A DNA stretch of 64,000 nucleotides from an uncultured virus (IMG/VR IMGVR_UViG_3300028030_000352) (IMGVR_UViG_3300028030_000352), one strand, 5' to 3'. Counted from the first letter of the stretch, positions 5,458 to 64,000 are shown. A program made the numbers and translations. The notes: a model not told the origin generated them from the sequence alone.

Positions 5458-5994
5458 TCTTTCAAGTGCTTCATCTGTTGCAGATGAAATTACGGATCGT
5501 TTCACGTCAAAGAAGATGTGATCGTATATCATGCAGATTTTTGTATATTCAATGAGTGAGCATTTATCACGTACTCGATAAATCTTTTTATCAACAGCTT
5601 TGAGTTTCTTTTTGATTTTATCGATCGGTGATTGTTTTTTCTCTTCCTCTTCCCCTTTTATATCTAAATCGATTCCGAATCGATTCGCGAGTTGAACTGT
5701 CGCTTGTCCATATGAAATGCTATTGAAGCGTGAGTAAAGAGCTATGCTATCCCAATTTTCCCTACAGACAAAACAGTAAACGTGGCCGCTTCCATCATCC
5801 GGATAGTAGCGGGCCGATGGTTTATTGTCTGGGCCGTGAAATGGACACGGTATTTGCGTCGGTTCATTTTGATTAACGAGCTGTTCTATCGTTGAATGCT
5901 CAGTTAGTGCTTGGAACGCGCTATACTCCCTTTTTATTTTTTCCCTTACCGCTTTCCACTTGCCCTTATCATCGCTTTTAAATTGTTCTATCAT
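5413..5994 (-). CDS. Stand-alone CHC2 zinc-finger protein (DnaG-type zinc-binding domain, no TOPRIM)
   Basis: CPFHGPDNKPSA...YCFVC...DSIALYSRF...ATVQLANRFGI. Confidence 0.85.
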   Translation of the reverse strand: MIEQFKSDDKGKWKAVREKIKREYSAFQALTEHSTIEQLVNQNEPTQIPCPFHGPDNKPSARYYPDDGSGHVYCFVCRENWDSIALYSRFNSISYGQATVQLANRFGIDLDIKGEEEEKKQSPIDKIKKKLKAVDKKIYRVRDKCSLIEYTKICMIYDHIFFDVKRSVISSATDEALERLSALINDKYEMSDT

Positions 5995-6662
5995 TTTGTG
6001 ATCTTGTACATTTTATACAACTTTTCAAATGTTTCATTTGAAAATGTCATATTGTTTGCTAAAATTATCTGTTTTTTATATTCATTACTATTGATTAACA
6101 GGTTCAATTTTTCTAAGAAAGATTCGTAAGTGCGTTTACTGTAGTAGTAAAAATTGTTATAATTGTTATAATGCGGTTCACGAAGTTGAAGTATCTTGTC
6201 CATGATCACATTGAATATCTTATGTGTTCTTTTGTTTAGTAAACCTAAACTTACTGTTAGTTTATAAGGTCTACTGCCTATTGTATATGATATTACAATA
6301 TTATTATCATCACATTCCATACTGTCAAAATGCATTGTTATGAATTTGCCGTTATGTGGTGAGATCTCATCAACATGTGTTACATCGTCTATTCCCTTCA
6401 TATATTCATTGATTGTTCCTGACCTCATGAACTGTTCTATTATTTTATCATGTATAACTTTAGAATCGTTCTTTGATAATTTTATATCATGGGATAGATT
6501 GAATTTGCCCCTTAACACATTAAGTTCACCTTGCATTGGTGAGTATCCACTTATATGATGATCTACAACGTGTCCGTCTACAGTAACGGACACGTCACAC
6601 TTTATACCAACCGCGTCAATCGTATACATAACAGATGGGTTTTTAATAGTAACCTGTATCAT
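5991..6662 (-). CDS. Hypothetical protein with C-terminal motif (LYKMYKITK)
   Basis: 223-aa ORF, ATGA-coupled. Confidence 0.8.
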   Translation of the reverse strand: MIQVTIKNPSVMYTIDAVGIKCDVSVTVDGHVVDHHISGYSPMQGELNVLRGKFNLSHDIKLSKNDSKVIHDKIIEQFMRSGTINEYMKGIDDVTHVDEISPHNGKFITMHFDSMECDDNNIVISYTIGSRPYKLTVSLGLLNKRTHKIFNVIMDKILQLREPHYNNYNNFYYYSKRTYESFLEKLNLLINSNEYKKQIILANNMTFSNETFEKLYKMYKITK

Positions 6663-6994
6663 CGCAAAATGTGATCTGCTATTGTTTCTAGAACATAAGA
6701 CCTGAACTTGTCAGATGCTAGTAGTTTTCTTTCAATTTCTTCCTCAATGAGATCTTTATATACCATGAAGTCTCCGTTGTCTTTTATGTTTACTGATATC
6801 TTATTGTTCACAAGATCGATCTTTGAGAAGAAAAAATTTGGCTTTTGTATATTATCCGTCATAGTGAACGTCTTACCACCGACGTTCACTATGACGGTAA
6901 CTAGCATCGTTCGTTGAATTAGTTTATAATCCTGCGTCCAAATATGATCGTGAATTATTACATCGTTATCATTTTTATCCGTATCATGTTCCAT
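6659..6994 (-). CDS. Hypothetical protein
   Basis: Coupled ORF. Confidence 0.65.
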   Translation of the reverse strand: MEHDTDKNDNDVIIHDHIWTQDYKLIQRTMLVTVIVNVGGKTFTMTDNIQKPNFFFSKIDLVNNKISVNIKDNGDFMVYKDLIEEEIERKLLASDKFRSYVLETIADHILR

Positions 6995-7248
6995 AATTCG
7001 TCCATGTCGATTTTTATTACAGAGTTCGATATCTTGAAATATTGAAGCCTTCTTTCTGTCTTATTTTTATGGAAATCGGCGATGAGTTCGTTCATCTTAT
7101 ACCCGGTTCCCTCTATTATATTATAGGCTTCAGAAGTTACGTCCTTATCATAATATTGGCGAATTAGTTTTCCATTATACAGGAAAACTACATACTTTGA
7201 TTTCTTTGACAGATGCAATATCTTTATATCATGCTTCGAGTAGTTCAT
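6958..7248 (-). CDS. Hypothetical protein
   Basis: Overlapping co-oriented ORF ending MIRIKMITM. Confidence 0.6.
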   Translation of the reverse strand: MNYSKHDIKILHLSKKSKYVVFLYNGKLIRQYYDKDVTSEAYNIIEGTGYKMNELIADFHKNKTERRLQYFKISNSVIKIDMDELWNMIRIKMITM

Positions 7249-7939
7249 CGATTCCTAGAACTCTGTAAATTTCTGGTTTTCTTATTTCTATCTTGTTTTC
7301 TAGGCTATTTACTAGACTTTGGACTTTTTCTTCGAATGAAAAGAATTTGCTATTGATGTTGCCGTAATAGGCTCTAATGATTATCAGGTCGTGAACGAGT
7401 GCTTTAATCTGTTTGTTAACTTCTTCCATGTCAAGAAATTCAACGAGTTTCTTGTTCCAGTTAATGAGCTTTACGTTGTTCACTCTTTCCATGTCATAGA
7501 TGATCCCCGGCTTCCTGACCGTTATCATGTCATCATATGTCATGACTCTGCTAGATTTTAGACTTCCTAGTGTTACGCCTTTTAGCATGTAGTCTACAAA
7601 CTTCTGGTAGGTGAAAAGTCCATCGATTGGTTCTGATATTACCGATCTGACGATCGGATACTGTTCATCGTGCATTAGCTTGATTCGCGATATGTCTACC
7701 GCATACGTGTACTTGAACGTCTTGCCGTGCATTTCGGCTATTATCGCCGCTTGAGGGAAAATTAGCCTGAACGGTTTTTCTGCGTTTTTAGCGACGTTCT
7801 TCTTTTTGTTTATGAAACTGAACTTTACGTTTTCTGGTTTTGCCGTTAGGTTCTTTTCTATTGCCCTCTTTATTATATCCGACGACAGAATATCGTTTCT
7901 TATATCATCATATGACATACCTGAATACGTTTTCCTCAT
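7229..7939 (-). CDS. Hypothetical protein
   Basis: 236-aa coupled ORF. Confidence 0.8.
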   Translation of the reverse strand: MRKTYSGMSYDDIRNDILSSDIIKRAIEKNLTAKPENVKFSFINKKKNVAKNAEKPFRLIFPQAAIIAEMHGKTFKYTYAVDISRIKLMHDEQYPIVRSVISEPIDGLFTYQKFVDYMLKGVTLGSLKSSRVMTYDDMITVRKPGIIYDMERVNNVKLINWNKKLVEFLDMEEVNKQIKALVHDLIIIRAYYGNINSKFFSFEEKVQSLVNSLENKIEIRKPEIYRVLGIDELLEA

Positions 7940-8247
7940 GATGTTTTCCTTTCTAAATTCTTAGCTATGTGGTTAGCTATCAGGTTTGTCACGGTTTTTA
8001 TCGTTCCAACTTCTTGAAGTTTTTGTGATATTGCTTCCTTTATTAAATCCTCGTGTTTTTTGTCTACTCTTAGTGCAACCCAGTCAGAGTGCAGTACCAT
8101 TACCGCGTCGTCTTTTATGATTTCGCCGTTCGACTCTATCTCAATGTCTATGTCTATCGATTTGTGAATTGACATATATGATGTGTACTCCGGGATGTAC
8201 ACGTTAAACTTTGTCACTGTGAAGTTATTTGTTGATTTTTGTGACAT
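7936..8247 (-). CDS. Hypothetical protein
   Basis: Coupled ORF. Confidence 0.65.
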   Translation of the reverse strand: MSQKSTNNFTVTKFNVYIPEYTSYMSIHKSIDIDIEIESNGEIIKDDAVMVLHSDWVALRVDKKHEDLIKEAISQKLQEVGTIKTVTNLIANHIAKNLERKTS

Positions 8248-8590
8248 TGTATATTCGTCTAACTTTTTGTTCTACTTCTTCCCAGTTCAACCACTTGATT
8301 TGAACTTGCTCTTTTGCAAGTTGAATCTCGGACTCTATCGTTGGGTTGTACATGGACGGCACTCGCTCTAATTGTTGCTTTAGTTCGGCTGACTTTTCCT
8401 CGTTAAAAACTACATTGTGAGTTTTAATGAGTTGGCGTTGAACTGTGTCGTAAAGTTGTTCACTGTTTATTTCTTTTGGATGCGAAGCGACTTTCACATC
8501 GCAAGATCTACCATCAATAGTAAACTTCAGTGTCATAACGTTCATTGGATTAATTTCTAGTGATACTCTATCTAGCTCTATGCATTTCAT
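8225..8590 (-). CDS. Hypothetical protein with C-terminal motif (IYNVTKINK)
   Basis: Overlapping co-oriented ORF. Confidence 0.7.
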   Translation of the reverse strand: MKCIELDRVSLEINPMNVMTLKFTIDGRSCDVKVASHPKEINSEQLYDTVQRQLIKTHNVVFNEEKSAELKQQLERVPSMYNPTIESEIQLAKEQVQIKWLNWEEVEQKVRRIYNVTKINK

Positions 8591-11668: not shown

Positions 11669-11694
11669 ATCGTTTCCTTGCCGTGTTGTTGCGT

Positions 11695-21675: not shown

Positions 21676-22230
21676 TCACTGTGAAATTAGCTTCATCTTT
21701 GCTTTCATCAGCGAAAGTTTTTTCAGTTTTTCCGTGTCAATTTTTAGAAATTTGATATCATATCCATAATCATCGGAGATCAGGTTTAGTGCCATTTGGA
21801 CCGTTTCTTCTAAGTCAATATGTGTTACTGTATTTTGTGATGACTGTTCTACTTTATCTCCGATCAGTGATACCATGTACTCGCTGATCGATTTACTAAC
21901 CTTTGACACGTTATCATTGGTTTTTTGAATATTACCAATGGCGTTTTTCCAATCATCGATTACTAACAGTTTCCACTCATTCGTTGTTTTGTATATGTGT
22001 GTTAGTATTCTGCTGGTTATTGAATACTTCAGACCGGTAATTTCATTGCTCAAGTATGGGATCGAGATTTTGTCTCTCCCATCAATTGACGCCATATTGA
22101 TCCCATCAATGTTTATGATTGTTATATCAATATCGTTCACATAGTCTATAATTTCTGGTTTTATGTCTTCATTGAAGACTCTGGACTTCATTAGTCTTTT
22201 ATATACGATTGTATGCTTTATGTCTTTCAT
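21676..22230 (-). CDS. Paralogue family A protein
   Basis: TIVYKRLMKS N-terminal motif. Confidence 0.8.
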   Translation of the reverse strand: MKDIKHTIVYKRLMKSRVFNEDIKPEIIDYVNDIDITIINIDGINMASIDGRDKISIPYLSNEITGLKYSITSRILTHIYKTTNEWKLLVIDDWKNAIGNIQKTNDNVSKVSKSISEYMVSLIGDKVEQSSQNTVTHIDLEETVQMALNLISDDYGYDIKFLKIDTEKLKKLSLMKAKMKLISQ

Positions 22231-24295: not shown

Positions 24296-24880
24296 CTACT
24301 CTAACACTCGTCTTTCGTTCATGTACCTCCATATAAATATGCTTTTTCTCATTTGCTTGAAATAATCATCCGATGCTTTGAATTTGTACATCCAAGCTAA
24401 TTGTCTATATGTGTTTTTACTTTTAATAAATGACAGGTGGATTTTGCTTATTCTGGAACAAGAGATCACCACTCTACTACCGTTTTTCGTAAGATTTATC
24501 ATGTTATAATATCCAGTAATTTTCCCTGTGTCTACATTTCTTACCATAGTAAACTCTTTTTTAGAATAAATTGAGTCTACTTTCGGTATAGCCATTACAC
24601 GTACCGCGTCGTTACCGGAAAATGCGACTTTAGATCCAACTCTACTGACTGATGTGTTACTATATGAACAGAAAAAGAAAACGCCAGGTCTGTCGCTATC
24701 GTCCCTTGCGAACACGTAACCTTTTGTCTTTCCTATTTTTACATTAAACACGCCAAAGTGAAAGCCGGGTATTGCCCTCACTGTGCTTGTCATGATTGAA
24801 CTATCAGCTACGATAGTATTACTTGGTGTTGCGGCTATTGACGCTAAGGCTAACGCGATTGCGAGTATTTGTTTTTTCAT
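24296..24880 (-). CDS. Hypothetical exported protein
   Basis: Signal-peptide-like N-terminus MKKQILAIALALASIAA. Confidence 0.75.
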   Translation of the reverse strand: MKKQILAIALALASIAATPSNTIVADSSIMTSTVRAIPGFHFGVFNVKIGKTKGYVFARDDSDRPGVFFFCSYSNTSVSRVGSKVAFSGNDAVRVMAIPKVDSIYSKKEFTMVRNVDTGKITGYYNMINLTKNGSRVVISCSRISKIHLSFIKSKNTYRQLAWMYKFKASDDYFKQMRKSIFIWRYMNERRVLE

Positions 24881-25356
24881 CTTTTTCCTTCACTTAATTG
24901 TCTTGAGATAGATTCATTCTTTTCTATGATCTTATCAAATTTTGACGTCATGTATGCAAGCATTTTGTTTTTAACAATATCGTGCAGTTTTTCTTTATCG
25001 ATAGAGTATATGATCTGTTCCGGAAGATCAAATGGTGTGTTCATGATCTTCATGGCTTGATATATGTCGGGATATTTATTCTGTGGGTGATTAAATTCAA
25101 TTTTTGAATGTTCATAATATGAGTACCCGCCTTCAAATATATTAAAAAATTCCCTATATATACTATTTAATATTAGTCCCATCATTAGGCCATGATACTC
25201 TATATAATGAAGTAAAGTAGCAACGTTTACATTAAAACTAAATGATAAGTCCCCTGCGTCTATCAATATTTTAGTGTTATCAACATTACTATCTATTTTG
25301 ATTTCATTTACTCTAATATTACATAAAAATTCATGAAATTTTTTGAAGTTTTTCAT
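24877..25356 (-). CDS. Hypothetical protein
   Basis: ATGA-coupled ORF. Confidence 0.75.
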   Translation of the reverse strand: MKNFKKFHEFLCNIRVNEIKIDSNVDNTKILIDAGDLSFSFNVNVATLLHYIEYHGLMMGLILNSIYREFFNIFEGGYSYYEHSKIEFNHPQNKYPDIYQAMKIMNTPFDLPEQIIYSIDKEKLHDIVKNKMLAYMTSKFDKIIEKNESISRQLSEGKR

Positions 25357-25850
25357 TTGCCGATCATCTTAACTCTTGTATATTTCATTGCCATCTCTGC
25401 AGCTTCATTAAAGACGTCATCATCTGAATATAAAAAATGTTCTTTAGCATCCTTTATGACGTTCTCCATTGTTAACTCATAATCAACATAATACATGTTA
25501 TTAAGTACGTTATCTATCCTGTCTTTCAGTCTATCAAATAATAGGTTCTTCAAGTCTGTTTTGATGTCGATCATAAGTTCCATGCTATACGGAATGTTTA
25601 GCTGTTCAGCTACTAGGTCGTATAGTTTACCAATTTGTTTTCTAACGGTGGATGCTATTAGAGCTTCAAGATTATGTAAACTGTCACGTTTATTAGGGAA
25701 GTAAAATTCCTTTGAAAAAGAATCCTCATCGCTTGATACAATAATTACGCAATAGTTTCTACTCATTAACGTGTGTTTGATCTGTATGTTTGACGCTATT
25801 TCATCTAATCGTTCTGACACTATATCATGATAACGTTTTATGTTATTCAT
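25353..25850 (-). CDS. Hypothetical protein with C-terminal motif (YTRVKMIGK)
   Basis: Coupled ORF. Confidence 0.75.
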   Translation of the reverse strand: MNNIKRYHDIVSERLDEIASNIQIKHTLMSRNYCVIIVSSDEDSFSKEFYFPNKRDSLHNLEALIASTVRKQIGKLYDLVAEQLNIPYSMELMIDIKTDLKNLLFDRLKDRIDNVLNNMYYVDYELTMENVIKDAKEHFLYSDDDVFNEAAEMAMKYTRVKMIGK

Positions 25851-26478
25851 TCAATCTTTTTACCTTTTTTAAGTATGCGATAGTATCCACTATGTGTTGT
25901 GGAAGATTACGGTTATATTTAACGATCGATTCTAGAGCCCAAAGTGGATCGTCAAAGTTTGCAATAAACTTATTTAAATATTTATACCCTGTATCAAGCA
26001 TGCATTGTATATTGGATGATTTGTTTATTATGCTCCAATTTGAGATGTCTTGATTGAACGCACTTGCTTTATAGAACATCGCATACATACTTTTTACATT
26101 CGACACGTCCCATCGGCTTAGGTCTTGATCGAATGATTTAGTATTGCTGAACATCAATCTCGTGTCCGTTACGTGACTTACGTTCCACGCGCTTATATCC
26201 TGATTGAACTTTTTACATCCTAGAAACATCCGACCCATATTAGTCACGTTGGACACGTCCCAGTTTCCGATGTTTTGATTGAACGCTTTCGCCCCCTCAA
26301 ACATACTTGCCATGTCTGTTACATTTGAGGTGTCCCACCGGCTAATGTCTTGATTGAATGACTTTTTATTAAGGAAAAGCCATTTCATATCGGTGATGTC
26401 GCTCGTATCCACAAAACGAACGTCGTCATCATTTTTGATCATCTTTTCTAGTTGTTTTTTCGTTACCTTACGGTTCAT
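25843..26478 (-). CDS. DUF285/BspA-type repeat protein
   Basis: 25-aa [20 protein letters not shown] repeats. Confidence 0.92.
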   Translation of the reverse strand: MNRKVTKKQLEKMIKNDDDVRFVDTSDITDMKWLFLNKKSFNQDISRWDTSNVTDMASMFEGAKAFNQNIGNWDVSNVTNMGRMFLGCKKFNQDISAWNVSHVTDTRLMFSNTKSFDQDLSRWDVSNVKSMYAMFYKASAFNQDISNWSIINKSSNIQCMLDTGYKYLNKFIANFDDPLWALESIVKYNRNLPQHIVDTIAYLKKVKRLNE

Positions 26479-50465: not shown

Positions 50466-51092
50466 TCATTTTGTTATTTGTATCATTTTATCTATCCGTA
50501 TGAAGTATTGTTTATTTTCCTTTAAAAGTTCATTACTTTCAATAATCTTATCCAATATATCTACGGTATCGATTGGTGTATCATCTATTTTGTGCCAAAT
50601 ATTGTGAATACTATCAGACATTAATTCAAGTAACTTTTTATCTGATTTTATTCTTTCTATTATAGATATTATATCATAGTATTTATACAGTTCACTAAAT
50701 ATTTTAATGAACTGTTCATTGTTATATTCACTTATTAGTATTTTACTGTCATCAAGCCACAACTCATTGTTTATCGTATCAATGAATGATCGCTGTGGAT
50801 CGTCCACATATCTAACGATTGACCCGATAACAAATTTTTCTAGTACAACTTCTGAGTCATGTTTATCCACACATAACTTTAATGAAATAGTTATTTTTCC
50901 ATTTCTTTTGTAATATATCGTTCCATAGTGTAATTCTTTATCACACTCTATTACGGAATAATACGTTGGTCTTATACCTACTTCTAACGTGTTATTATTT
51001 AATTCTACTTTAGTTATTACTATGTCAAATTCAGTTCTTTTGTGCCCTATATTCCACTCGGTGTCATTTGTAACTATGAGTTTATCATCCAT
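50466..51092 (-). CDS. Paralogue family D protein
   Basis: Similar to 54409..55005; ends KMIQITK. Confidence 0.78.
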   Translation of the reverse strand: MDDKLIVTNDTEWNIGHKRTEFDIVITKVELNNNTLEVGIRPTYYSVIECDKELHYGTIYYKRNGKITISLKLCVDKHDSEVVLEKFVIGSIVRYVDDPQRSFIDTINNELWLDDSKILISEYNNEQFIKIFSELYKYYDIISIIERIKSDKKLLELMSDSIHNIWHKIDDTPIDTVDILDKIIESNELLKENKQYFIRIDKMIQITK

Positions 51093-51095
51093 ATT

Positions 51096-52265
51096 TCATC
51101 TATTGATCTTCCTCATTTTCATGTAACTATCGATATTATTCAGTCCAATGTTATCAGGTATTTGTACACCTATTATATTTTTCATAACTGTACCTATAAG
51201 TTTACGATTTACATAATTTTTTATGAATTGCGAGAAATATGTAAATGATTCTGCTCCATTAAATATGTCCCCTATGCTATTCACTTTTGACACGTCCCAT
51301 GATGATAAATCTTGATTGAACGCTTTTGCTCCCTTAAACATGCTATTTATATTGGTGACGTTTGATACATTCCAATCTCCAATGGGCTGATTGAACGCGC
51401 TCGTTTCACTAAACATGCTACTCATGTCGATGACGTTTGACACATCCCATTGGCTGATATCTTGATTGAATGCGGTAGCCCAATAAAACATCCAATCCAT
51501 GTTTTTTACACTTGACACATTCCAGTTACTGATATCCTGGTTGAACGCTTTTGCTCCATAAAACATGTAACTCATGTTTGTGACGTTTGACACGTCCCAA
51601 CTTCCGATTGGCTGATCGAATGCTGTGGCCCAATAAAACATATATTCCATGTTTTTTACATTTGACACGTCCCAAGATCCTATGTCTTGGTTAAAAGTAT
51701 CCGCTTCATTAAACATAAAAGACGTATTTCTTACGTTTGACACGTTCCAGTTACCAATATCTTGGTTGAACGATTTTGCTCTATGAAACATGTAACGCAT
51801 ATTTTTTACTTTTGATACGTCCCAATCACCAATGGGCTGATTGAATGCGGTAGCCCCATAAAACATATCTTGCATACTTTTTACTTTTGACACGTCCCAT
51901 CTAGAAATGTCTTGATTGAACGATTCCGCCTGACTAAACATTCCAATTATGTTAATAACATTACTTATGTTCCAAGATCCAATGTCTTGGTTGAACGCTT
52001 TTGCTCCACTAAACATAGATCGCATGTTTTTTACTTTTGACACATTCCACGATCCGATAGGTTGATTGAACGATTTCGCAAATTTAAATATGTTATCCAT
52101 GTTAATAACATTACTTGTATTCCATCTAGAAATGTCTTGATTGAACGCCACGTTACCTTCAAATAAATGGGACATGTCTGTGATGCCTATCGTGTCAACC
52201 TGGGTGACATCATCGCCATTCGCTATCATTTTTTCAAGTTGTTTTCTTGTTACTTTTCTACTCAT
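51096..52265 (-). CDS. DUF285/BspA-type repeat protein
   Basis: About 12 repeats; ends YMKMRKINR. Confidence 0.93.
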
Positions 52266-52977
52266 TGATTTTATTCATTTTTAAATAACTATCCACACTA
52301 TCCAATGGAACGTCCCTCACTTTTTTGTACATTTCATTTCCTAGTAAGTCTTTTATGACTAATTTTATACCAACTTTAGTTTTTTTAATAAACTCATAAA
52401 CATTATGGACACCACAATTTTTAAACATGTAACTCATATTAACGGATGGATTTAGGCTCCAGTTTGATAAATCCTTGTCAAACGTTGTTGCTCCATCAAA
52501 CATTGAACTAAGGGTCATAACATTTTTCACATCCCATGACGAAATGTCTTGATTGAACGTTTTTGCATTTTTAAACATACAACACATATTTGTTACATGA
52601 CTCACGTTCCATTTAGATAAATCCTGATTGAACGTTATTGCCCCATAAAACATTTCCATCATATTAGTAACGTTGGACATGTCCCAATTAGAGATATCTC
52701 CATTGAATGACTTTGCCATCCTAAACATGGCATTCATATATTTAACGTTAGATACGTTCCAACATGATAAATCTTGATTGAACGATTCCGCAAGATTAAA
52801 CATATAGCACATGTCGGTAACGTTCGACACGTTCCATCCTGATATGTCCTGATTGAATGTTTTATTTCCTTCAAATAGATGAGACATGTCGCGAATTCTT
52901 GATGTGTCAACCTGAGTGACATCCTCGCCATTCGCTATCATTTTTTCAAGTTGTTTTCTTGTTACTTTTCTACTCAT
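52258..52977 (-). CDS. DUF285/BspA-type repeat protein
   Basis: DUF285 repeats; ends YLKMNKINE. Confidence 0.93.
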
Positions 52978-53722
52978 TGATTTTATTTATCTTATGGTAT
53001 CTTATTAGTTGTGTCATCATGGTGTCAGATATTTTTCCATTAAGTTGTTTTATAGCCATATTTTCAAAGCTTTGATCTTTAGAAAGTCTTTTGATGTCGT
53101 ATAGGATCGTATCCGGAATGCATCTTTGATTCAGATATTCTTTAACTTTATTCCTATAATGTCTTTTCATGAATGAGTATGAAAACTCTTTAATGAACAG
53201 TGAGATATCATTTATTGTTTTGTTTAGTTCATACTTATTGTTTTTAAATTCATAATATATTATTACCGTTATTTCATTAAATTTTGTTTGTTCTATCAAT
53301 ACCTGATATATTTTGGTATTTTCTTCTATGTCATGTTTTATCATAGATATCGTATCTATATCAATAAAATCAAGGAATTGTCCTTTTACGTGATTATCTC
53401 TAGTTATGTATTGTAATGACCCATAAAGATGTTTTATATAATCATCATCATTGATCATGTTATCATATACTGAATCCGGTATATGCACAGTGCACTTAAG
53501 TTTATTTATCTTTTCTTTTAGTGATATAGTGTGAACAATAGCTTCAATCAGTTTACTTTTGTCTAGACTATCTAGAGATAGACCTAAAGTTTTTGTTAGT
53601 GTTATTACTTCATTATTTCTGTTTAGGTACATAAACCTAAACTTTGTTCTAAATGTTTGAGTGCTAGTTATTTCAATGTGCGTTATATTAAAATGAACTG
53701 GTTTCATAAAATTGTTTAGCAA
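52970..53722 (-). CDS. Paralogue family C protein
   Basis: IPDSVYDNM..D..YIKHLYGSLQYIT; ends YHKINKINE; true start probably MKPVHF. Confidence 0.8.
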   Translation of the reverse strand: MLNNFMKPVHFNITHIEITSTQTFRTKFRFMYLNRNNEVITLTKTLGLSLDSLDKSKLIEAIVHTISLKEKINKLKCTVHIPDSVYDNMINDDDYIKHLYGSLQYITRDNHVKGQFLDFIDIDTISMIKHDIEENTKIYQVLIEQTKFNEITVIIYYEFKNNKYELNKTINDISLFIKEFSYSFMKRHYRNKVKEYLNQRCIPDTILYDIKRLSKDQSFENMAIKQLNGKISDTMMTQLIRYHKINKINE

Positions 53723-54404
53723 GTTCGTTGAATTTACTTATTTTATGTCCATTTAATTTGACCCATAGTTCAAGGCCGAAATAATGACGTATTGCTTCGT
53801 GTGGTTTCCTAAATTTTTTGACGAATCTAGCTATGTCAAAAGATTTTGTTCTGTATAGCATCATACTTGTTTTTTCAACCTTATCTAGATCAAAGTATCG
53901 AACGTCATGATTGAATTTGAATGCATGACTAAACATAAGAGACATGTCTTTTACCTTACTTGTGTCCCAATATGTTACATCATGACTAAATGATCTAGCG
54001 TTATCAAACATTCTTCTCATGCTAGTAACGTTTGATACGTCCCACTCTGGCATGTCTTGATCAAATGCTTCAGCGTGTAAAAACATCCGACTCATATCCG
54101 TGACATTTGACGTGTTCCAACCGGAGATATCTTGATTGAACTTTTCACAAAATGCAAACATACCTGACATGTTTTTAACTTTGCTAGTGTCCCATTTAGA
54201 TAAATCTTGATTGAATTCATACGCATAAACAAACATGTTACTCATATTAGTAACGTTGGACACGTCCCAACGAGAGATGTCTTGATTGAACTTATTCTTA
54301 CCACAAAACAGCTCGCTCATATCAGTGATGCCGCTCGTGTCAACCTGAGTGACATCTTCATCGTTCGCGATCATATTGATTAATTGCTGTCGTGTTACTT
54401 TCAT
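53688..54404 (-). CDS. DUF285/BspA-type repeat protein
   Basis: DUF285 repeats. Confidence 0.92.
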   Translation of the reverse strand: MKVTRQQLINMIANDEDVTQVDTSGITDMSELFCGKNKFNQDISRWDVSNVTNMSNMFVYAYEFNQDLSKWDTSKVKNMSGMFAFCEKFNQDISGWNTSNVTDMSRMFLHAEAFDQDMPEWDVSNVTSMRRMFDNARSFSHDVTYWDTSKVKDMSLMFSHAFKFNHDVRYFDLDKVEKTSMMLYRTKSFDIARFVKKFRKPHEAIRHYFGLELWVKLNGHKISKFNELAKQFYETSSF

Positions 54405-55017: not shown

Positions 55018-55886
55018 TTATTTACTTATTTTTAGCATTTTTAGATATCCGTCAATCTTCTCAGGATTAATATTTTTAGTTTTTTCATACATATCATTCC
55101 CTAACATTTCCATTATTGTCAAATCAATGTCACCATCTAGCTTTTTCGCTAATTTATGAATGTAACACATTCCGGAGTTTTCAAACATGTCTAAAATATT
55201 CATTATGTTAGATAAGCCCCAACTTGAGACATCATTGTTGAATGAAATTGCCCTACTGAACATTTTTTCATTGTTACAACATTATATGTGTCCCATTTAG
55301 ACAAATCTTGATTGAACGCTTCCGCATTGTTAAACATATAACTCATATTAGTTACACATGAAGTGTCCCAATCTTCAATGGGCTGATTGAACATTTTTGC
55401 CCCGTCAAACATATGACTCATATTTTCTACCATAGATACGTCCCAATCACTAATGGGCTGATTGAACGTTCTTGCCCCGCTAAACATGTAACCCATATCT
55501 TTCACTCTGAATGTGTTCCACCCTGAAATGTCTCCATTAAATGATTTTGTATTACCAAACATATAACTCATATTTTCCACGTTTGACACATCCCATTTGG
55601 ACAAATCTTGATTGAATGACTCAGCACAACAAAACATGCTACTCATATCTTCCACGTTTGAAACATTCCACTTGGAAATATCTTGATTGAACATTATACT
55701 TCCTTCAAACATGTGCTTCATACTTTCAACGTTCGATGTATCCCAATTTGAAATATCCTGATTGAACGTTGTATTATTATAAAACAAGATTGACATGTCA
55801 CGAATTTCGCTTGTGTCTACAAACCGGACGTCCTGACCTCTGTCTATCATCCGGATTAATTCATCTCTTGTTACTTTTTTATCCAT
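55018..55886 (-). pseudogene. DUF285 gene split by a 1-nt deletion in an A-tract (~55263-55268)
   Basis: ORF 55203..55886 derails after TMKK; ORF 55018..55263 resumes MFSRAISFN and ends YLKMLKISK. Confidence 0.8.
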
Positions 55887-56335
55887 GAAAAAATTGACTC
55901 AAATAGATAACTATACGCTATTGTATTTTTTAGATCTTTTGCAATAGATTCGTTTAAATCACTGATTTTATCAAAGTCAAAAACATTAAATGAAGTTCCA
56001 CCTGTAGTTGGTATTGGTATTGCAGGAATACTTGGCAGGTTATTTATTAAAAATTCATATTGATGTTTTACTAATTGTTCTCCCCCTATAAATATACCAA
56101 TTACTACATCATCATTCAATTGTGACTCAATATCATTAACAATTTCTACTCTGTTCATTACGCCAATTTTTTCCGACAAATTAGTCACAAACTGTGTTAT
56201 CGATTCATTATTATTGATGAATACTATGTCAAACTCAGTTTCTTTTACTGAGTAGATCAAATAACGAATCGACTCCCTTATGAGAATTTTATTACTGTTG
56301 TTTATTCCGGATGATACTAATATTTTCTTACTCAT
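55871..56335 (-). CDS. Stand-alone degenerate SLOG-domain protein
   Basis: GIFIGG..V..QYE.......IPIPTTGGTS resembles the SLOG (cluster 3/STALD-like) FIGG...EY...P..STGG motif. Confidence 0.6.
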   Translation of the reverse strand: MSKKILVSSGINNSNKILIRESIRYLIYSVKETEFDIVFINNNESITQFVTNLSEKIGVMNRVEIVNDIESQLNDDVVIGIFIGGEQLVKHQYEFLINNLPSIPAIPIPTTGGTSFNVFDFDKISDLNESIAKDLKNTIAYSYLFESIFSWIKK

Positions 56336-56939
56336 TGATCTTTTTTAAATCGCTCATTTTTATGTATTTATATAGGTCGTCGTTATCTAATGATGCCAAC
56401 GCCGATTTTATGACACTTTTTCTAAATGATTTGTCATTCAAAATGTTTTTTACAGTCTTTTCCCATGACATTAAACTTTCGTATGTCCACGCAGGTACTA
56501 TGTCCATGTCAAATTCGAAAAATTGTTCTGTGTAAGCGATAAGTTCATCCATTGAATTATTACAAATTGCCGGAGATGACAACTTGATCGTTATTTCTTC
56601 TCCGTTATATCTGGCTGTTATGTTTACCATCGTGTCAACTATTTCATAATCTAAAAATCTAGCGTCAACTTTCATGTATTTTTGTTTTTTTGACTCATCT
56701 AAATGATAATCAGCATACTCAATGACTTCCAGTGCTTTATCATTAACTACGCCATTAAATAGATCAATGATTTGATCCATTCTACTATCAAATCCCAACT
56801 CAGATCTCAAATGATACTCCATTTGAGGTCTATCATACTTTGATGAAAGTTTAATTATCTTTCCATCAACATCTATGCTAGCGTTTACTGTCCATGCCCA
56901 TCCGATAGCTTGATCTATCGATACATCTGTTATTTTCAT
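56328..56939 (-). CDS. Hypothetical protein with C-terminal motif (DLKKINE)
   Basis: 203-aa coupled ORF. Confidence 0.8.
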   Translation of the reverse strand: MKITDVSIDQAIGWAWTVNASIDVDGKIIKLSSKYDRPQMEYHLRSELGFDSRMDQIIDLFNGVVNDKALEVIEYADYHLDESKKQKYMKVDARFLDYEIVDTMVNITARYNGEEITIKLSSPAICNNSMDELIAYTEQFFEFDMDIVPAWTYESLMSWEKTVKNILNDKSFRKSVIKSALASLDNDDLYKYIKMSDLKKINE

Positions 56940-56948: not shown

Positions 56949-57284
56949 CTACGCATTTATCTGTTTTAGCATTATGAGTCTTATCCTATCTTTCAATCTA
57001 TCTGATACATTTATCTGTCCGTTTTTTATCTGTTTTGATAAACTTAGCATCATTGATGCTATGTTAGATTTTGTATTCAGCAGGTCATAGTGTATTTCGT
57101 TATCTATATATTTATCATTCAGAATAATGTCACATTCTACATCACCAATTTCAGGAACTCTTAGTGAAATGTCTACTGACATTTTGTATATTGTGACTGT
57201 TCCGTTAACATATGACACATCTAGGGTATCTCCATTCCATAGTGTGTATGATTCGTCTTCTGATTTTGTGAAGTTTACTATCAT
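56949..57284 (-). CDS. Hypothetical protein
   Basis: Ends IMLKQINA. Confidence 0.7.
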   Translation of the reverse strand: MIVNFTKSEDESYTLWNGDTLDVSYVNGTVTIYKMSVDISLRVPEIGDVECDIILNDKYIDNEIHYDLLNTKSNIASMMLSLSKQIKNGQINVSDRLKDRIRLIMLKQINA

Positions 57285-57665: not shown

Positions 57666-58340
57666 TTATTTTGTTATATCTTTCAGAGCTAGATATCTAC
57701 CGATGCTTTCAACCGGTTCTACAGAGTATAGAAGTTCATAGGCTTGTGCCGATGTTGGCCTGACAGTGGCATTTTTTATTCTATCAATTAATATATCATC
57801 TATGAATATTGATGCTAAATGTTTTATTACGATACCATTTACTACTGTCATCAAGACTGAATCTATTATTGCCTGCCATATCTTTATGTGATAATAGTCC
57901 ATATCATCTATTTTTATTGTACGTGAAAATCTTTCATCTTTATAGGTGGCATCATACTTTACTACAGCGTAATCATTTTTTACTACGAAGTATACTTCAT
58001 TGAATTTTACATCATGAAGTTTCATTATTATTGATATGTAGTATTTACTATTGATGAACGCGTTGTTATCGATATATGAGTCATCTATTTCTTTTGAAAT
58101 TATGTCCAAGTATGATTTGTTTGATCTTGCATGTACTATTACGTCATGGTCTAAAGTTACATCTTCTCTAAATTTTTCTTCTATTGTTCGTTTAAAGTTT
58201 ACAGTAAACGCTACTGTATCAATGTTTATGTCCGCCAGAATGACCGATAATTCATAAACATTTCCATCACGTTCATATTTAAACCAGACTTTATATTTAT
58301 TTCCAATACGTTTGAACTGTGTTAACTCAAGTATTTTCAT
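57666..58340 (-). CDS. Hypothetical protein (family C-like)
   Basis: Ends YLALKDITK. Confidence 0.78.
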   Translation of the reverse strand: MKILELTQFKRIGNKYKVWFKYERDGNVYELSVILADINIDTVAFTVNFKRTIEEKFREDVTLDHDVIVHARSNKSYLDIISKEIDDSYIDNNAFINSKYYISIIMKLHDVKFNEVYFVVKNDYAVVKYDATYKDERFSRTIKIDDMDYYHIKIWQAIIDSVLMTVVNGIVIKHLASIFIDDILIDRIKNATVRPTSAQAYELLYSVEPVESIGRYLALKDITK

Positions 58341-58950: not shown

Positions 58951-59243
58951 GTTATCGACATCTCCCTTCTTTTAGACGTAAAGTTTATAATTGATTCCCT
59001 TATATGTTCAATGATCTTATCTGAGTTGTTATCTAAAAATTCATTGAACAATTTTTGATCAAGTTTGACATTATAGACTTTGAGCTTTTCTTGGATCTTA
59101 TGATACTCAAAGTTAAACGTGAACTCAGCCACATATGTACTATCAACATTATGTACATGAACGTATACATGATAATCACCGTGTCCATCGGTTATCGCTA
59201 AACTTACAACTTCATTGTTTTGAACGTTCGCGCTTATGATCAT
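58917..59243 (-). CDS. Hypothetical protein
   Basis: ATGA-coupled ORF. Confidence 0.65.
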   Translation of the reverse strand: MIISANVQNNEVVSLAITDGHGDYHVYVHVHNVDSTYVAEFTFNFEYHKIQEKLKVYNVKLDQKLFNEFLDNNSDKIIEHIRESIINFTSKRREMSITWFKNKILLTR

Positions 59244-60061
59244 TGTTTTATCATGTTTATCTTGATAATATCCATCAGTTTATCGTCCGGTAAAGCTTTA
59301 GCCATTTTACTTATGTCCTTTAGCTCCATCATAATTAACTTTCTCATATCTGAGTTTATCGGCTTTATCGCCTTCACAAATTTTTTGAATAGTTTGTTCA
59401 TATTTATACAGTATATAGCATCCTTGTTAATCTTAAAATAAGATACGATAATATTAATCACTCCAGTATAAACTTGTAGCATGTCATAATCATTTATGTT
59501 ATGTCTATATACCACTAGCGATGGTAGTGATAACCTGTCATTATAAGTTGATGATGCGTATCTATCTGTTTTTCCATCCATTGTGATGGAAAATTCATAC
59601 ATTATTGATATTCGATATGATGCACTGTCACGTGCTTTATTTACTACATATATATTAACTGAATGAAATTGTATCGAGTCAAGTTCATTTATAGTTGTTT
59701 TCACACTATGTGGAGTTTCTAACTTTATTGAGTCAGTATAATTTATTAGGTCATTCAATATTTTGTCATTTATATCATTGTTGATGACGTTTAGTTGTTC
59801 ATCAGCTATTGTTTGCGCGATCATCTCTTTAAACTGTTTTTCATTTGAGATGACAATATTTATGTACTCGTTGATAGCGTTTGATATCGGATCAACGATC
59901 ACCAATGAGTATGATGAGTCCATCATCTTGATCATTCCTCTTGATGTATAACCTGTATTGGTTTCAATCTCTACATCAATATTCACGCTAAAGTGATTGA
60001 AACCTATCGCTTCTACATTTAAAATCTTTACTATTAAACTAGTTTTACGCTGCACACACAA
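59240..60061 (-). CDS. Paralogue family E protein
   Basis: Shares NEKQFK.M.A and FSIT..GKT with 61622..62386. Confidence 0.8.
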   Translation of the reverse strand: MCVQRKTSLIVKILNVEAIGFNHFSVNIDVEIETNTGYTSRGMIKMMDSSYSLVIVDPISNAINEYINIVISNEKQFKEMIAQTIADEQLNVINNDINDKILNDLINYTDSIKLETPHSVKTTINELDSIQFHSVNIYVVNKARDSASYRISIMYEFSITMDGKTDRYASSTYNDRLSLPSLVVYRHNINDYDMLQVYTGVINIIVSYFKINKDAIYCINMNKLFKKFVKAIKPINSDMRKLIMMELKDISKMAKALPDDKLMDIIKINMIKQ

Positions 60062-60094: not shown

Positions 60095-60553
60095 CTAAGA
60101 GTTTATCAACGATAACTTATATAGTCTTTTCATTTTATTTATATCACACGGCCCTGGTTTTATGAGTTTAATCGGATCATGGTCTTCATATGTTATCACA
60201 TATCTGTACATCAATAACTGAGATGACCCTACTGTTATCATAAGACCGTCTCTATCAAAAATTATAAGTGGATAATCTGTCGATAATTGAACAAAATCAA
60301 CAGGTTGTATATACATGTCATACATATCTCTAACGTTTACCATGTCATATCTGAATATTAGCTTACCTTCATTACCAACACGTTTTCCGTCCCATGGGAT
60401 ATAATCATATGGTATTCCATTTTTTAGGACTAGATACCTGGTCCTTGAGTATATGTCATTACCGGTTGTTGTATAATCATCATATATTATAGCTAGCATT
60501 ACAACAGTTAGTACTATCACAATGGCTATCATTAAAAAGAATAGTTCATTCAT
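60095..60553 (-). CDS. Hypothetical protein with N-terminal TM helix
   Basis: Hydrophobic residues 4-23; ends LYKLSLINS. Confidence 0.75.
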   Translation of the reverse strand: MNELFFLMIAIVIVLTVVMLAIIYDDYTTTGNDIYSRTRYLVLKNGIPYDYIPWDGKRVGNEGKLIFRYDMVNVRDMYDMYIQPVDFVQLSTDYPLIIFDRDGLMITVGSSQLLMYRYVITYEDHDPIKLIKPGPCDINKMKRLYKLSLINS

Positions 60554-61078: not shown

Positions 61079-61079
61079 G

Positions 61080-61625
61080 TCACCCTAGTATTGTGTTCAT
61101 CTTTACTAACCTATTTGCGGTTTCAATAATTCTATTGTAATTTATATCATTTTTACCTATGGCATATCCGAATCTATTGAATATGCCATATGCTACTGAT
61201 TTTACTAGGATGTCATAATTATCTACACGTACTTCACTATTGACTGCACTATCGATGTTATCTTTTAATGCATTATAAAGCATGTTATAAACTGACTGTT
61301 TTACTGTTTTAGCATTTCTTTCTTTGCTTAGTTTTCCGAAATATCCATTCCAATTTCTTATCATCTTTAATACTATCTCATCGATTTCATCAATATTTGA
61401 TGATGTTACATCATGCTTTATGACTCCATTGTAATACTTTAAGCTTTTTGGAAGTGGAGAATAAAACGATAAACGACCCTCGGATTGAAACACCCTAGTC
61501 TTTCCCATCACGTTATAAAGAGTAAACCTAGTATTTTCCTTGATTTCATTGAATAATGGGGAAAGTTCATTTTTAAATATGTCAGATTTCAGTATTAGTT
61601 TGTAAACCCTTTTATTTTTTATCAT
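61080..61625 (-). CDS. Paralogue family A protein
   Basis: VYKLILKSDIFKNE. Confidence 0.8.
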   Translation of the reverse strand: MIKNKRVYKLILKSDIFKNELSPLFNEIKENTRFTLYNVMGKTRVFQSEGRLSFYSPLPKSLKYYNGVIKHDVTSSNIDEIDEIVLKMIRNWNGYFGKLSKERNAKTVKQSVYNMLYNALKDNIDSAVNSEVRVDNYDILVKSVAYGIFNRFGYAIGKNDINYNRIIETANRLVKMNTILG

Positions 61626-62386: not shown

Positions 62387-62396
62387 AGCTTCTGCC

Positions 62397-62466
62397 TTCC
62401 TTTATATCTTCCTGGCTTTTCATGTATTCAATGGCTTGACATAGCCTAACATATCATAAAGTGGCA
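62397..62466. repeat. Rearranged third copy of the 85-bp element
   Basis: 62397-62414 is the reverse complement of caggaagatataaaggaa; 62431-62466 atggcttgacatagcc...ataaagtggca is in direct orientation. Confidence 0.8.
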
Positions 62467-62484
62467 AGGGGATACTGTCCTGTG

Positions 62485-63201
62485 TTACGACGATATTTTT
62501 TTCATTGAATAGAGTCTTTTGTATGTTTCCCTTATATTTTTTGGGAATACTCTATTAAAATATTCGTCATTTGTGCTATCACGAAGTGCCTGTTCTATTC
62601 CATAAATTAGATCGTCCGGAACTATCAGGTAAAACAATTTATTATTTCTAAAGTCACCGTATGATTTTAGGGTGTCATATGTATCTCTATCAACATGTTT
62701 TAGTATGGTTGATAAAATCAGCGTTACCGGTGAAACGCTATATTGAAGTATTCCATGTCTGGACCAACCTGTGATCCTTTTGATGGTGTCACCGTTATAC
62801 GTGAATTTTATACTGAATTTTACTAAATTTCCATATCTAAACGCTATGATTTCTTCTATTTTTACTTTTTTACTTAATTTTCGTCTTATTTTAACATATT
62901 CATGAAACTCACTGGAATCTGTGAATTTGCGTATATTACCAAACACATATCCCGTCCAGTGCTCTGACATGATTAACTTTTCATACAGTTTATCGGGAAT
63001 ATGAACACTTTCAAAATAACCGCTATATGACGATTCATTAAGATTTGTTAAAATTGCTTTTTCTAGACTTGACTTCTTCATACTTCCGGTAACGTCAATG
63101 TTAACCGACATATCATGATTTTCACCGTTGTATATAAAACTAATTTCTATTTTTAAATATGATGATGATACGTTATACGCTTTTATGTCAGTGACTATCA
63201 T
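62485..63201 (-). CDS. Paralogue family C protein
   Basis: IPDKLYEKLIMSEHW, FTYNG, IVPDDLI; ends LYSMKKISS. Confidence 0.82.
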   Translation of the reverse strand: MIVTDIKAYNVSSSYLKIEISFIYNGENHDMSVNIDVTGSMKKSSLEKAILTNLNESSYSGYFESVHIPDKLYEKLIMSEHWTGYVFGNIRKFTDSSEFHEYVKIRRKLSKKVKIEEIIAFRYGNLVKFSIKFTYNGDTIKRITGWSRHGILQYSVSPVTLILSTILKHVDRDTYDTLKSYGDFRNNKLFYLIVPDDLIYGIEQALRDSTNDEYFNRVFPKNIRETYKRLYSMKKISS

Positions 63202-64000
63202 GTTTGCACTCTTATCATTCTAAGAAAATCATCGAGACCTCCCAGATTATGCTTCCTTATTGTCATGTTTATATCATACATTTCCCACTCAATGACGTCC
63301 TCTATTATTTCATCACGAGTGTATTTACCGGAAAGTTTGTTTATGAATCTAGAAAGTCTTGTCATACCGGATTCATAGAACATGTTACGAATATGCTCTA
63401 GTTTATCCACTCTCCAGTTACATAGATCCTGGTTAAACGCCATTGCTCTGGCAAACATGCTTTCCATTCTTTCTACGTTAGACACGTCCCAGTTCCCAAT
63501 CGGCTGATTGAAACTTAGTGCCTCACAAAACATAGCATTCATATTATCAACGTTTGATGTGTCCCAATTCCCAATTGGCTGATTGAATGCTGCAGCACTA
63601 TCAAACATGTAACTCATGTCAGTTACTTTACTCGTATTCCAATTCCCAATTGGTTGATTGAAACTGAACGCGTTATTAAACATGTGGTTCATGTCAACTG
63701 TTTTACTTGTGTCCCATCTACTGATGTCTTGATTGAATGATGAAGCATTTTCAAACATCCCATCCATATACTCAACATTCGAAGTATTCCATCTTCCGAT
63801 CGGTTGATTAAACATTCTTGCATCGTTAAACATATGACTCATGTGCACAACGTTCGACGTGTCCCATCGAGAGATATCCTGATTGAAACTGGACGCCCCG
63901 CCGAACATGTCATTCATGTTAGTCACATTAGATGTGTCCCACCTACTGATGTCCTGATTAAAATCAGGTTTTTCGGCAAATAAACAGGACATGTCAGTGA
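63198..64000 (-). CDS. DUF285/BspA-type repeat protein (5' end outside window)
   Basis: DUF285 repeats; ends FLRMIRVQT. Confidence 0.92.
   Translation of the reverse strand, partial: TDMSCLFAEKPDFNQDISRWDTSNVTNMNDMFGGASSFNQDISRWDTSNVVHMSHMFNDARMFNQPIGRWNTSNVEYMDGMFENASSFNQDISRWDTSKTVDMNHMFNNAFSFNQPIGNWNTSKVTDMSYMFDSAAAFNQPIGNWDTSNVDNMNAMFCEALSFNQPIGNWDVSNVERMESMFARAMAFNQDLCNWRVDKLEHIRNMFYESGMTRLSRFINKLSGKYTRDEIIEDVIEWEMYDINMTIRKHNLGGLDDFLRMIRVQT

Follow-up and report, generated by a model that had tools for sequence, protein, structure and literature searches.

Cells sort proteins by short terminal address tags, as in the sortase, exosortase and type IX secretion system (T9SS) pathways, the peroxisomal PTS1 signal and the cargo peptides of encapsulins. 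In the PEP-CTERM/exosortase, LPXTG/sortase, GlyGly-CTERM and T9SS (PF18962) systems, one C-terminal signature is carried by many unrelated proteins of a single genome and was found by this recurrence. The same situation is described here for an uncultured virus (IMG/VR IMGVR_UViG_3300028030_000352), of which a stretch of 64,000 nucleotides (nt), called the window, was analysed. The window is almost the whole of one 67.4-kb contig, with about 3.4 kb lying outside, and about 40 of the 85 proteins considered end in the nine-residue pattern Y/Φ-x-K-M/Φ-x-K/R-I/V-x-x-stop, hereafter the tag. This tag may be a docking or address peptide, and the literature searched, as far as its text was accessible, holds no description of such a tag on the accessory proteome of a phage-like element.

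The tag differs from the sortase, exosortase and T9SS signals in that its carriers lack a C-terminal transmembrane helix, mostly lack a signal peptide and are encoded by a mobile element. Moreover, the T9SS domain PF18962 is a beta-sandwich of 70-100 residues, whereas the tag comprises 9-12 residues and is predicted to be helical. PF18962 was found in 0 of 88 window proteins, and no NCBIfam sorting-domain model (including the TIGR04183 type) matched any of 30 tagged proteins. A hydropathy scan of the 85 proteins did not show the N-terminal Sec signal peptide expected of T9SS cargo on the carriers; N-terminal hydrophobic segments occur on three proteins (24296, 48570 and 60095, genes being named by their first coordinate), of which only 60095 is a strong carrier. 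Also, the combination of motif, C-terminal transmembrane helix and basic cluster that characterizes LPXTG, PEP-CTERM and GlyGly-CTERM proteins is absent, without any NCBIfam model match; no tagged C-terminus contains a hydrophobic 19-mer, and the mean tail hydrophobicity is -0.14. The carriers look cytoplasmic. For one group of them a comparison with cellular proteins can be made directly, because 16 window proteins are DUF285/PARCEL repeat proteins (PF03382, E down to 1e-184, with TIGR02167 matches also) whose 26-residue repeat fits the family models. Many public DUF285 homologues end in PF18962 at the place where the window proteins bear the tag. Cellular DUF285 proteins are routinely coupled to an address module, and in the window a different, much shorter one takes its place. 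DUF285 genes are also reported to be expanded in a giant algal virus, their role being given as unknown, and one ORF of a jumbo Vibrio phage is annotated as PARCEL.

Other known systems resemble the tag in function. Encapsulin and microcompartment peptides, of about 10-18 residues at the extreme terminus, dock unrelated cargo to one shell protein, and encapsulin shells have the phage HK97 fold. The tag is likewise short, extreme-terminal and placed on unrelated proteins; however, the encapsulin-type peptides have flexible linkers ahead of them and other consensus sequences, and a cargo set of this size and nature (about 40 proteins, many with leucine-rich repeats, LRR) is not known from any described system. 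In phage T4, the capsid targeting sequence (CTS), a short peptide specific to the phage, likewise directs several unrelated proteins to a single place, in this case the prohead, although it is N-terminal and removed by the prohead protease, whereas the tag is C-terminal in 32 of 32 strong carriers. The XB tail of SspB and the ClpX C-motif-2 are, like the tag, basic-hydrophobic extreme C-termini, and dock a binder or a substrate to a hub machine. In this case, the XB tail has another pattern and length and follows a long disordered linker, in contrast to the helix predicted here with AlphaFold2 (AF2). Finally, the poxvirus ankyrin (ANK)/PRANC proteins are a viral multigene family of repeat-type binders ending in one short module that plugs into a common machine, comparable to the window carriers; nonetheless, PRANC is an F-box-like domain binding eukaryotic Skp1, whereas the module of the window has about 9-12 residues, occurs on many families and belongs to an element with a prokaryotic host. 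The likenesses to encapsulin peptides, the T4 CTS, the XB tail and ANK-PRANC are functional analogies.

A motif tied to the carboxy terminus

From about 2.2 kb to the end of the window nearly all genes lie on the minus strand, being tightly packed and frequently overlapping by 4 or 8 nt. The tag was counted on a curated set of 85 minus-strand open reading frames (ORFs). Excluded from it were four ORFs on the plus strand (601-5457), all ORFs that are nested or antisense, and those falling within two clustered regularly interspaced short palindromic repeat (CRISPR) arrays (11.66-12.56 kb and 15.15-17.81 kb). Tails were scored with a leave-one-out 9-residue position-specific scoring matrix over the 85 tails, a strong carrier having a score of at least 6 and a weak one a score of 2-6. 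A score of at least 6 is reached by 32 of the 85 tails and by 23 of 17,680 internal 9-mers, and the corresponding counts are 27 and 7 at a score of at least 8, 25 and 3 at a score of at least 10, and 15 and 1 at a score of at least 12. The weak copies add eight tails, giving about 40 carriers in total (Table 1). This agrees with the original prediction, made from the sequence alone, that about 40 proteins share a C-terminal motif, and all the tails it quoted were found as given, including KVKKINE on the TESETD-repeat protein at 41204-41632. Four of the seven internal hits with a score of at least 8 lie within 25 residues of the C-terminus and are second copies of the periodic motif. Moreover, a six-frame scan yielded 39 hits with a score of at least 10, a stop codon following directly after 33 of them, and all 33 are on the gene strand.

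Written by position, the motif reads Phi(-9)-x-K(-7)-Phi/M(-6)-x-K/R(-4)-I/V(-3)-x-x-COOH, or three successive Phi-x-basic triplets (Y-L-K / M-x-K / I-x-(K)), the last of which coincides with the carboxy terminus. Ahead of the nine residues, position -12 is often hydrophobic and position -10 often basic. Conservation is highest at -3, where the relative entropy reaches 1.21 bits (I 43, V 10 and L 8 of 85 tails); it is 0.76 bits at -7 (K in 36/85), 0.72 bits at -6 (M 22, L 12, I 10 and V 10 of 85) and 0.69 bits at -9 (Y in 21/85), compared with 0.175 +/- 0.05 and a maximum of 0.34 for random internal columns. Over the last 12 residues, tagged tails have a net charge of +2.2 and untagged tails one of +0.4. 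When residues are shuffled within the 12-residue tails, the summed information falls from 6.81 to 3.25 +/- 0.17 (z = 20.5). As shuffling erases the signal, composition and AT-richness do not explain the motif, and the possibility that it is not enriched over an AT-rich background, raised with the original prediction, does not apply. The existence of the motif and its anchoring to the protein end are far beyond chance.

The tag was also sought elsewhere. It is found on 0 of 46 ORFs of a 26%-GC huge-phage locus, on none of the best 120 public DUF285 homologues and on no protein of four DUF285 loci from viral contigs and a 462-kb uncultured phage (L001-L004). In 120 AT-rich viral loci chosen for containing the DNA pattern of the tag, 5 of 1,142 ORFs carry it among the matches listed. 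A degenerate version of the pattern gave at least 120 single, chance-like matches in viral contigs, none of them with a second tagged ORF among the matches listed. Within the window, the enzymes with an assigned function (PurB, Dcd, Cas3/5/7/8c, the papain-like peptidase and the restriction-modification enzymes) all score negative, as had been anticipated.

Selection on residues and possible translational coupling

The information content of the tag codons has a clear three-base period, with third positions near background. Across families, nucleotide identity at codon positions 1, 2 and 3 is 0.51, 0.59 and 0.38 in the tag, compared with 0.32, 0.33 and 0.33 in control codons of the same genes. 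Two tags that agree in a residue also agree in its codon in 524 of 1,023 comparisons (51.2%), the expectation from codon usage being 48.8%. For example, K at -7 is encoded by AAA and AAG in a ratio of 19:6 (background 75:25) and Y at -9 by TAT and TAC in a ratio of 12:6 (background 68:32), and isoleucine codon usage within the tag is likewise normal. At positions -6 and -3, M, L, V and I interchange by first-position changes. Silent sites are thus saturated while the peptide persists, so the tails are not recent DNA copies. Scanned with a nucleotide position weight matrix of the tag, the gene strand yields 82 sites, of which 34 are gene ends in register; the other 48 compare with about 36 in shuffled sequence, and no enrichment of the nucleotide motif was seen out of frame or in spacers. 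Also, the register of the motif to its own stop codon is unchanged although, among the 32 tagged genes, the offset of the next start ranges from -23 to +98 nt. The next start overlaps the tagged gene in 20 of 32 cases (by 4 nt in 12, by 8 nt in six and by 10 or 23 nt in two) and follows after a gap of 3-98 nt in the other 12 (up to 25 nt in seven, 26-98 nt in five). A Shine-Dalgarno (SD) or initiation region would keep a fixed distance to the start and be conserved independently of the upstream frame, and the tag does neither. The tag is under selection at the amino-acid level and not at the nucleotide level. Two further statements of the original prediction, that the motif stays in the frame of the upstream gene and that the signal is a protein-level one, are borne out by these data, and a purely nucleotide-level, frame-independent conservation is not what is observed.

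The nucleotide alternative considered at that stage fails for the motif itself; however, a separate constraint that does not depend on the tag was found at gene ends. Where the next gene lies within 20 nt, the frequency of A at third positions of the last nine codons is 0.51 in tagged and 0.50 in untagged genes, versus 0.35 in gene interiors. An SD-like 4-mer precedes 2 of 27 genes behind tagged genes and 11 of 31 behind untagged ones. The A content of the tag is 53%, compared with 38% in gene interiors, and the codons of K, I, N, M, Y and T are G-poor. An mRNA-level initiation constraint at gene ends, independent of the tag, is real, and it probably biases the alphabet of the tag towards K, I, N, M, Y and T without explaining the order of the residues. 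The A-rich gene ends and the scarcity of SD-like 4-mers suggest an SD-poor, A-rich translational coupling in this element.

Based on the same observations, the last nine codons could themselves act in termination or re-initiation and tune the coupling along the long co-directional array, either through the nascent peptide in the exit tunnel or as the A-rich, G-poor initiation region of a next gene devoid of an SD sequence. The exact tie of the tag to the stop codon, the rarity of SD-like 4-mers after tagged genes, the A-rich, G-poor codons of the tag and the overlap of most tagged genes with the next start would all agree with such a role. Nonetheless, we regard it as improbable, because A-rich third positions are equally frequent at untagged ends near a next gene and are hence a general feature, third positions and synonymous codons within the tag are otherwise free, five tagged genes are 26-98 nt away from the next gene, offsets vary by 4-19 nt without a shift of the motif, and the nucleotide motif is enriched neither out of frame nor in spacers. 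In addition, the known bacterial termination-arrest peptides need Pro or other particular residues at their last positions.

With regard to the gene junctions, the spacer after gene 35566-36426 (35546-35572) partly repeats the junction between tag and next start (…AAAGTAACAAGAATAACACAATGA), which looks like a footprint of slippage or recombination.

Carrier families, the predicted terminal helix and the possible reader

BLAST clustering separates the genes into DUF285 (16 genes, 12 of them strong carriers), F1 (five genes), F2 (five), F4 (three), F6 (two), F3 (three, with a weak tag or none) and singletons. In profile comparisons with hhalign, F2 joins F4 (98%), F3 joins F5 (86%) and F1 perhaps joins gene 25353 (50%), with no other joins, so that the 32 strong carriers represent 11 sequence families. 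The description of the carriers as unrelated families thus stands for these 11, but it does not extend to some 40 independent cases, since F2 and F4, which had been taken as distinct (families A and C), are homologous. The tag is specific to the element rather than to any carrier family. Its carriers include a protein made almost wholly of TESETD acidic repeats, intrinsically disordered and with no folded domain to cap, and the DUF285 paralogue at 53688..54404 keeps a homologous C-terminal extension, alignable column for column with its tagged paralogues, in which the motif has been lost.

No relatives of the ORFan families were found in any collection searched. A word-index search with F1 returned only two proteins, both on this contig; F2 has none in viral contigs; a profile of F2/F4 run against 1.84 billion representatives recovered only the eight query proteins and one weak hit; and the ESM Atlas gave no usable match to the ORFan families. 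The C-terminal extension of the DUF285 proteins (residues 195-262) has no relatives in a word-index search, and none by tblastn against phages. Only the junction pattern of a tag plus a DUF285 start was recovered, on one metagenome contig of 1,261 bp (L125) and on none of the viral contigs. One tail of L125 is identical to that of gene 37058; in another, Y, L, K, M, K and I are all retained, and changes are confined to the variable positions -5, -2 and -1. On this close relative (1-1261), a different DUF285 gene (287 amino acids, aa) follows the tail shared with gene 37058, which means that the array was rearranged between strains.

Two carriers were modelled with AF2. For the DUF285 protein 38408, the mean predicted local distance difference test score (pLDDT) is 95, and the tag lies in the last helix, residues 248-261, after a helix at 227-243, its pLDDT being 94 and then 87. 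For the F1 protein 33150 (mean pLDDT 81), the tag closes a terminal helix of 24 residues, 158-181, with a pLDDT of 70 and then 48. The F1 model has no match in the Protein Data Bank at E <= 0.001 with Foldseek. In these models, the tag would be the end of a C-terminal helix. The alpha-helical hydrophobic moment is 0.316 in tagged tails, 0.297 in internal 12-mers and 0.361 in untagged tails, whereas the moment peaks at 120 degrees per residue, that is, three residues per turn (0.625, the 95th percentile of internal segments being 0.531). These values fit a helix that is enclosed over more than half of its surface, or else a bound peptide whose conformation is extended or wound more tightly.

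A peripheral membrane anchor, in the manner of the amphipathic C-terminal helices that target MinD and FtsA to the membrane, would be short, lysine-rich, hydrophobic, C-terminal and helical, as the tag is or is predicted to be. However, the high alpha-helical moment of such segments is missing: the value for the tag is close to that of internal 12-mers and below that of untagged tails, amphipathicity appears only at three residues per turn, and lipid binding does not need sequence-specific conservation of Tyr and Met. This weakens the membrane-targeting option offered in the original prediction, and we consider an anchor of this kind very improbable.

The same models bring in a second alternative, that of an inherited structural helix which no common reader recognizes. 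A C-terminal helix module would have spread within the tandem array by duplication and recombination, with the tag as its most constrained remnant; in each protein, the tag would pack on its own domain as a cap or drive self-association. In agreement with this, AF2 places the tag inside well-ordered terminal helices in both families, and the hydrophobic positions span more than half of the circumference of an alpha-helix, a background moment being expected if the helix is largely buried. Also, the carriers are tandem neighbours in one array, some of the families are related (F2 with F4 and possibly F1 with 25353), and the best alignments between families in hhalign, although non-significant, fall on the C-terminal 13-45 columns. 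On the other hand, an LRR solenoid, the alpha/beta F1 model and a disordered acidic repeat need no common cap ending three residues past Ile, the 120 best public DUF285 proteins do without the tag, and the retention of the motif at saturated synonymous sites argues for a shared, continuing constraint and not for recent copying. We consider a structural helix without a reader unlikely. A predicted complex of the DUF285 and F1 carriers, modelling a tag-to-tag association, scored 0.00, which is not evidence either way.

A third possibility is that the tag acts as a degradation signal for its own carrier, recognized by a host AAA+ protease (ClpXP, Lon or FtsH), which would make the accessory repertoire short-lived. 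Its extreme C-terminal position, its basic and hydrophobic character and its absence from enzymes that must persist are in line with this timer, and the tag is reminiscent of the ClpX C-motif-2 signals (MuA ...RRKKAI) and the XB tail (...LRVVK). Nonetheless, degrons are usually unstructured, whereas in two families the tag is predicted to form a helix that runs on from the folded part of the protein, and it matches no defined degron in sequence; we find this explanation improbable as well.

The interpretation that we favour, with a probability of about 0.5, is that the tag serves at the protein level as a C-terminal address or docking peptide for one common partner, because the tag is specific to the element and not to a family, is selected at the protein level, ends exactly at the C-terminus and sits on binder-type and ORFan proteins but on no enzyme. 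One reader, encoded by the element or by the host, would bind the stripe of Tyr, Met and Ile, the flanking lysines and probably the free carboxylate, and this binding would gather the whole repertoire of carriers at one place or machine. Several points weigh against this interpretation. No reader, destination or host was identified for the tag, and the window holds no peptide-binding candidate. It holds no structural or packaging gene either, so loading into a virion is pure analogy; in particular, Pfam and PHROGs scans found no capsid or encapsulin family (HK97-fold shell) in the window, about 3.4 kb of the contig lying outside, and no prohead protease was seen in the window either. Moreover, the predicted tag helix of the DUF285 protein is very confident and has no flexible linker ahead, features that are commoner in integral structural helices than in free linear motifs. 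Finally, the evidence comes from one 67.4-kb contig and one near relative of 1.26 kb, and comparative support is shallow. The Sel1-repeat protein encoded in the window was considered as a reader and rejected, since its lipoprotein-type signal makes it extracytoplasmic.

As for the destination of an address peptide, loading into the virion or into another shell built by the element, by analogy with encapsulin cargo peptides and the T4 CTS, is doubtful. Slightly more doubtful is a role in which binder domains are tethered to a hub such as a host AAA+ protease, by analogy with the XB tail and the poxvirus ANK-PRANC adaptors; what remains would fall to other compartments or secretion. In its fullest form, the proposal is that the element has an addressing system of its own, (Phi-x-K)2-Phi-x-x-COOH, with one dedicated receptor. 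This receptor would either load about 40 binder-type effectors (LRR proteins and ORFans) into the particle, so that they are injected together with the DNA, or tether them to a host AAA+ machine, on which they would form an array of degradation adaptors. We put this forward tentatively, as possible but on balance not probable. The sorting address of an effector repertoire inferred in the original prediction is a plausible reading that goes beyond what the data establish. That the element is a phage is an assumption and not a finding, because 64 kb without a structural, terminase or tRNA gene do not establish it.

Some further features of the carriers can be described. A two-gene module, in which a tagged F1 gene is followed immediately by an F3 or F5 gene, is present in five copies (21159-22230, 26468-27537, 32635-33698, 33695-34761 and 60557-61625), and the kept pairing suggests that the two proteins work together. 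The F2/F4 proteins (28264-31219, 37693-38415, 39193-39921, 52970-53722 and 62485-63201) contain an internal duplication of I-P-D-x-V-h-x-x-h-x-N-S, at alignment columns of about 101-114 and 261-274, and a similar segment is found in 31491 and 57666, about 45 residues before the end. Perfect tandem repeats of an acidic hexapeptide occur in two proteins, TESETD (41204-41632) and DEQPDT (49835-50395), with the tag only on the first. Also, the DUF285 gene at 55018-55886 is split into ORFs of 227 and 81 aa, the frame changing by one base within six consecutive A at about 55263-55268; a -1 slip in this run would restore the DUF285 repeat consensus (…VTMKK, then MFSRAISFNNDVSSW…) and the tagged C-terminus. 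Slippage, a pseudogene or an error in sequencing might account for the split.

Table 1 Tails bearing the C-terminal tag in the window, and one DUF285 paralogue that has lost it
Coordinates	Strand	Tag	Family	Tail	Score	Remark
5991..6662	-	strong	singleton	LYKMYKITK	15.8	
8225..8590	-	strong	singleton	IYNVTKINK	8.5	
21676..22230	-	strong	F1	KAKMKLISQ	9.0	family by BLAST
25843..26478	-	strong	DUF285 (PF03382)	LKKVKRLNE	6.5	
26983..27537	-	strong	F1	YVKMLRVSK	12.3	
27528..28256	-	strong	DUF285 (PF03382)	YMRMKRIWK	13.2	
28264..28974	-	strong	F2	YIALKYINK	10.0	7-nt gap to next gene
28967..29725	-	strong	F2	LYGMKKINE	14.3	
29718..30431	-	strong	F2	SLKVKKVNE	10.4	
30428..31219	-	strong	F2	LLKINKVHR	10.9	second copy in register -3 (internal match 252/263)
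31491..32180	-	strong	singleton	KIKLEKIHE	7.7	17-nt gap
33150..33698	-	strong	F1	YMKMIIISQ	15.2	AF2 last helix 158-181
34216..34761	-	strong	F1	YMKMVIVSK	10.1	
34758..35546	-	strong	DUF285 (PF03382)	YLKMTRITQ	21.8	
35566..36426	-	strong	DUF285	YLKMTRITQ	21.8	
36423..37061	-	strong	DUF285	YIKIINITR	11.4	
37058..37696	-	strong	DUF285	YLKMHKIIK	14.8	identical tail on L125
37693..38415	-	strong	F4	YHKMTNIIK	13.7	homologous to F2 (hhalign 98%)
38408..39196	-	strong	DUF285	YLKMLKINE	20.9	AF2 pLDDT 95, tag in helix 248-261
39193..39921	-	strong	F4	YYRIAKITG	6.3	
41204..41632	-	strong	TESETD acidic repeat		10.5 (terminal)	two overlapping copies; 15.6 at 128/142
42135..42773	-	strong	DUF285	YLKMQRITQ	18.2	55-nt gap
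42770..43480	-	strong	DUF285	LIKMREITR	11.3	
50466..51092	-	strong	singleton	IDKMIQITK	6.7	70-nt gap
51096..52265	-	strong	DUF285	YMKMRKINR	19.0	
52258..52977	-	strong	DUF285	YLKMNKINE	21.2	
52970..53722	-	strong	F4	YHKINKINE	16.2	
55018..55263	-	strong	DUF285	YLKMLKISK	19.8	3' piece of split gene
57666..58340	-	strong	singleton	YLALKDITK	11.6	26-nt gap
60095..60553	-	strong	singleton	LYKLSLINS	7.2	N-terminal hydrophobic segment
61622..62386	-	strong	F6	AIKLNRINK	10.6	
62485..63201	-	strong	F2	LYSMKKISS	10.2	98-nt gap
24296..24880	-	weak		YMNERRVLE	3.6	signal-peptide-like N-terminus
25353..25850	-	weak		YTRVKMIGK	2.5	possible distant F1 relative (hhalign 50%)
32177..32638	-	weak		MAKTIKVTK	4.2	
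33695..34219	-	weak	F3	NNMIRKITK	3.4	
56328..56939	-	weak		MSDLKKINE	3.3	
56949..57284	-	weak		LIMLKQINA	4.4	
59240..60061	-	weak	F6	IIKINMIKQ	4.1	
61080..61625	-	weak	F1	LVKMNTILG	4.8	
53688..54404	-	none	DUF285	…FNELAKQFYETSSF	-17.3	motif-less paralogue

Gene content of the element and meaning of the tag

The genes with an assigned function include those of the papain-like peptidase, Dcd, a CHC2 zinc-finger protein and PurB, and Pfam, PHROGs, tRNA and Rfam scans found no capsid, tail, terminase, tRNA or Rfam element in the 64-kb window. PurB is at most 47% identical to proteins of several phyla. The Cas proteins, of which Cas8c, Cas3, Cas5 and Cas7 but not Cas1, Cas2 or Cas4 were seen within the window, form a divergent set resembling type I-C, and Cas7 has only 25-30% identity to plasmid or phage records. 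The type I-C-like Cas genes and the 4-nt gene overlaps indicate a prokaryotic host. Among sequencing runs, 91% of the words sampled occur in one DNA run labelled hydrothermal vent metagenome, which is possibly the sample of origin, and no RNA run is listed. Apart from the DUF285 proteins, the remaining genes are ORFans, and the tagged ORFan families have no match in PHROGs, PADLOC or NCBIfam.

The two CRISPR arrays (11690-12860 and 15175-17900) have one common 36-nt repeat, which has no exact match among 185,579 species genomes, and lie on either side of cas3, the genes of Cas8c, Cas5 and Cas7 being split around them. A segment of 181 nt adjoins each array (12827-13007 and 17920-18100); these segments, which share 94% identity, are probably leaders. 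Also, the stretch at 44035-49772 contains a type IIG-like restriction-modification block with a GIY-YIG/ResIII helicase-nuclease and an Eco57I-type methylase, and the Sel1-repeat protein, which is Cys-rich, carries the lipoprotein-type signal (…LVFTTSC) and overlaps this block by 4 nt. The CHC2 zinc-finger protein (5413-5994) has a DnaG-type ribbon and also fits the N-terminal part of PADLOC models for a DnaG-like defence protein associated with reverse transcriptase (RT_UG29, E = 2.5e-11).

Almost half of the genes in 58 kb bear one tag, which marks ORFans and DUF285/PARCEL proteins as one functional set. For this set, a tag of 9-12 residues offers a handle that could be used as a bait or in reporter fusions. 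Moreover, if a reader exists, the tag would be a compact, portable targeting tag for engineering.

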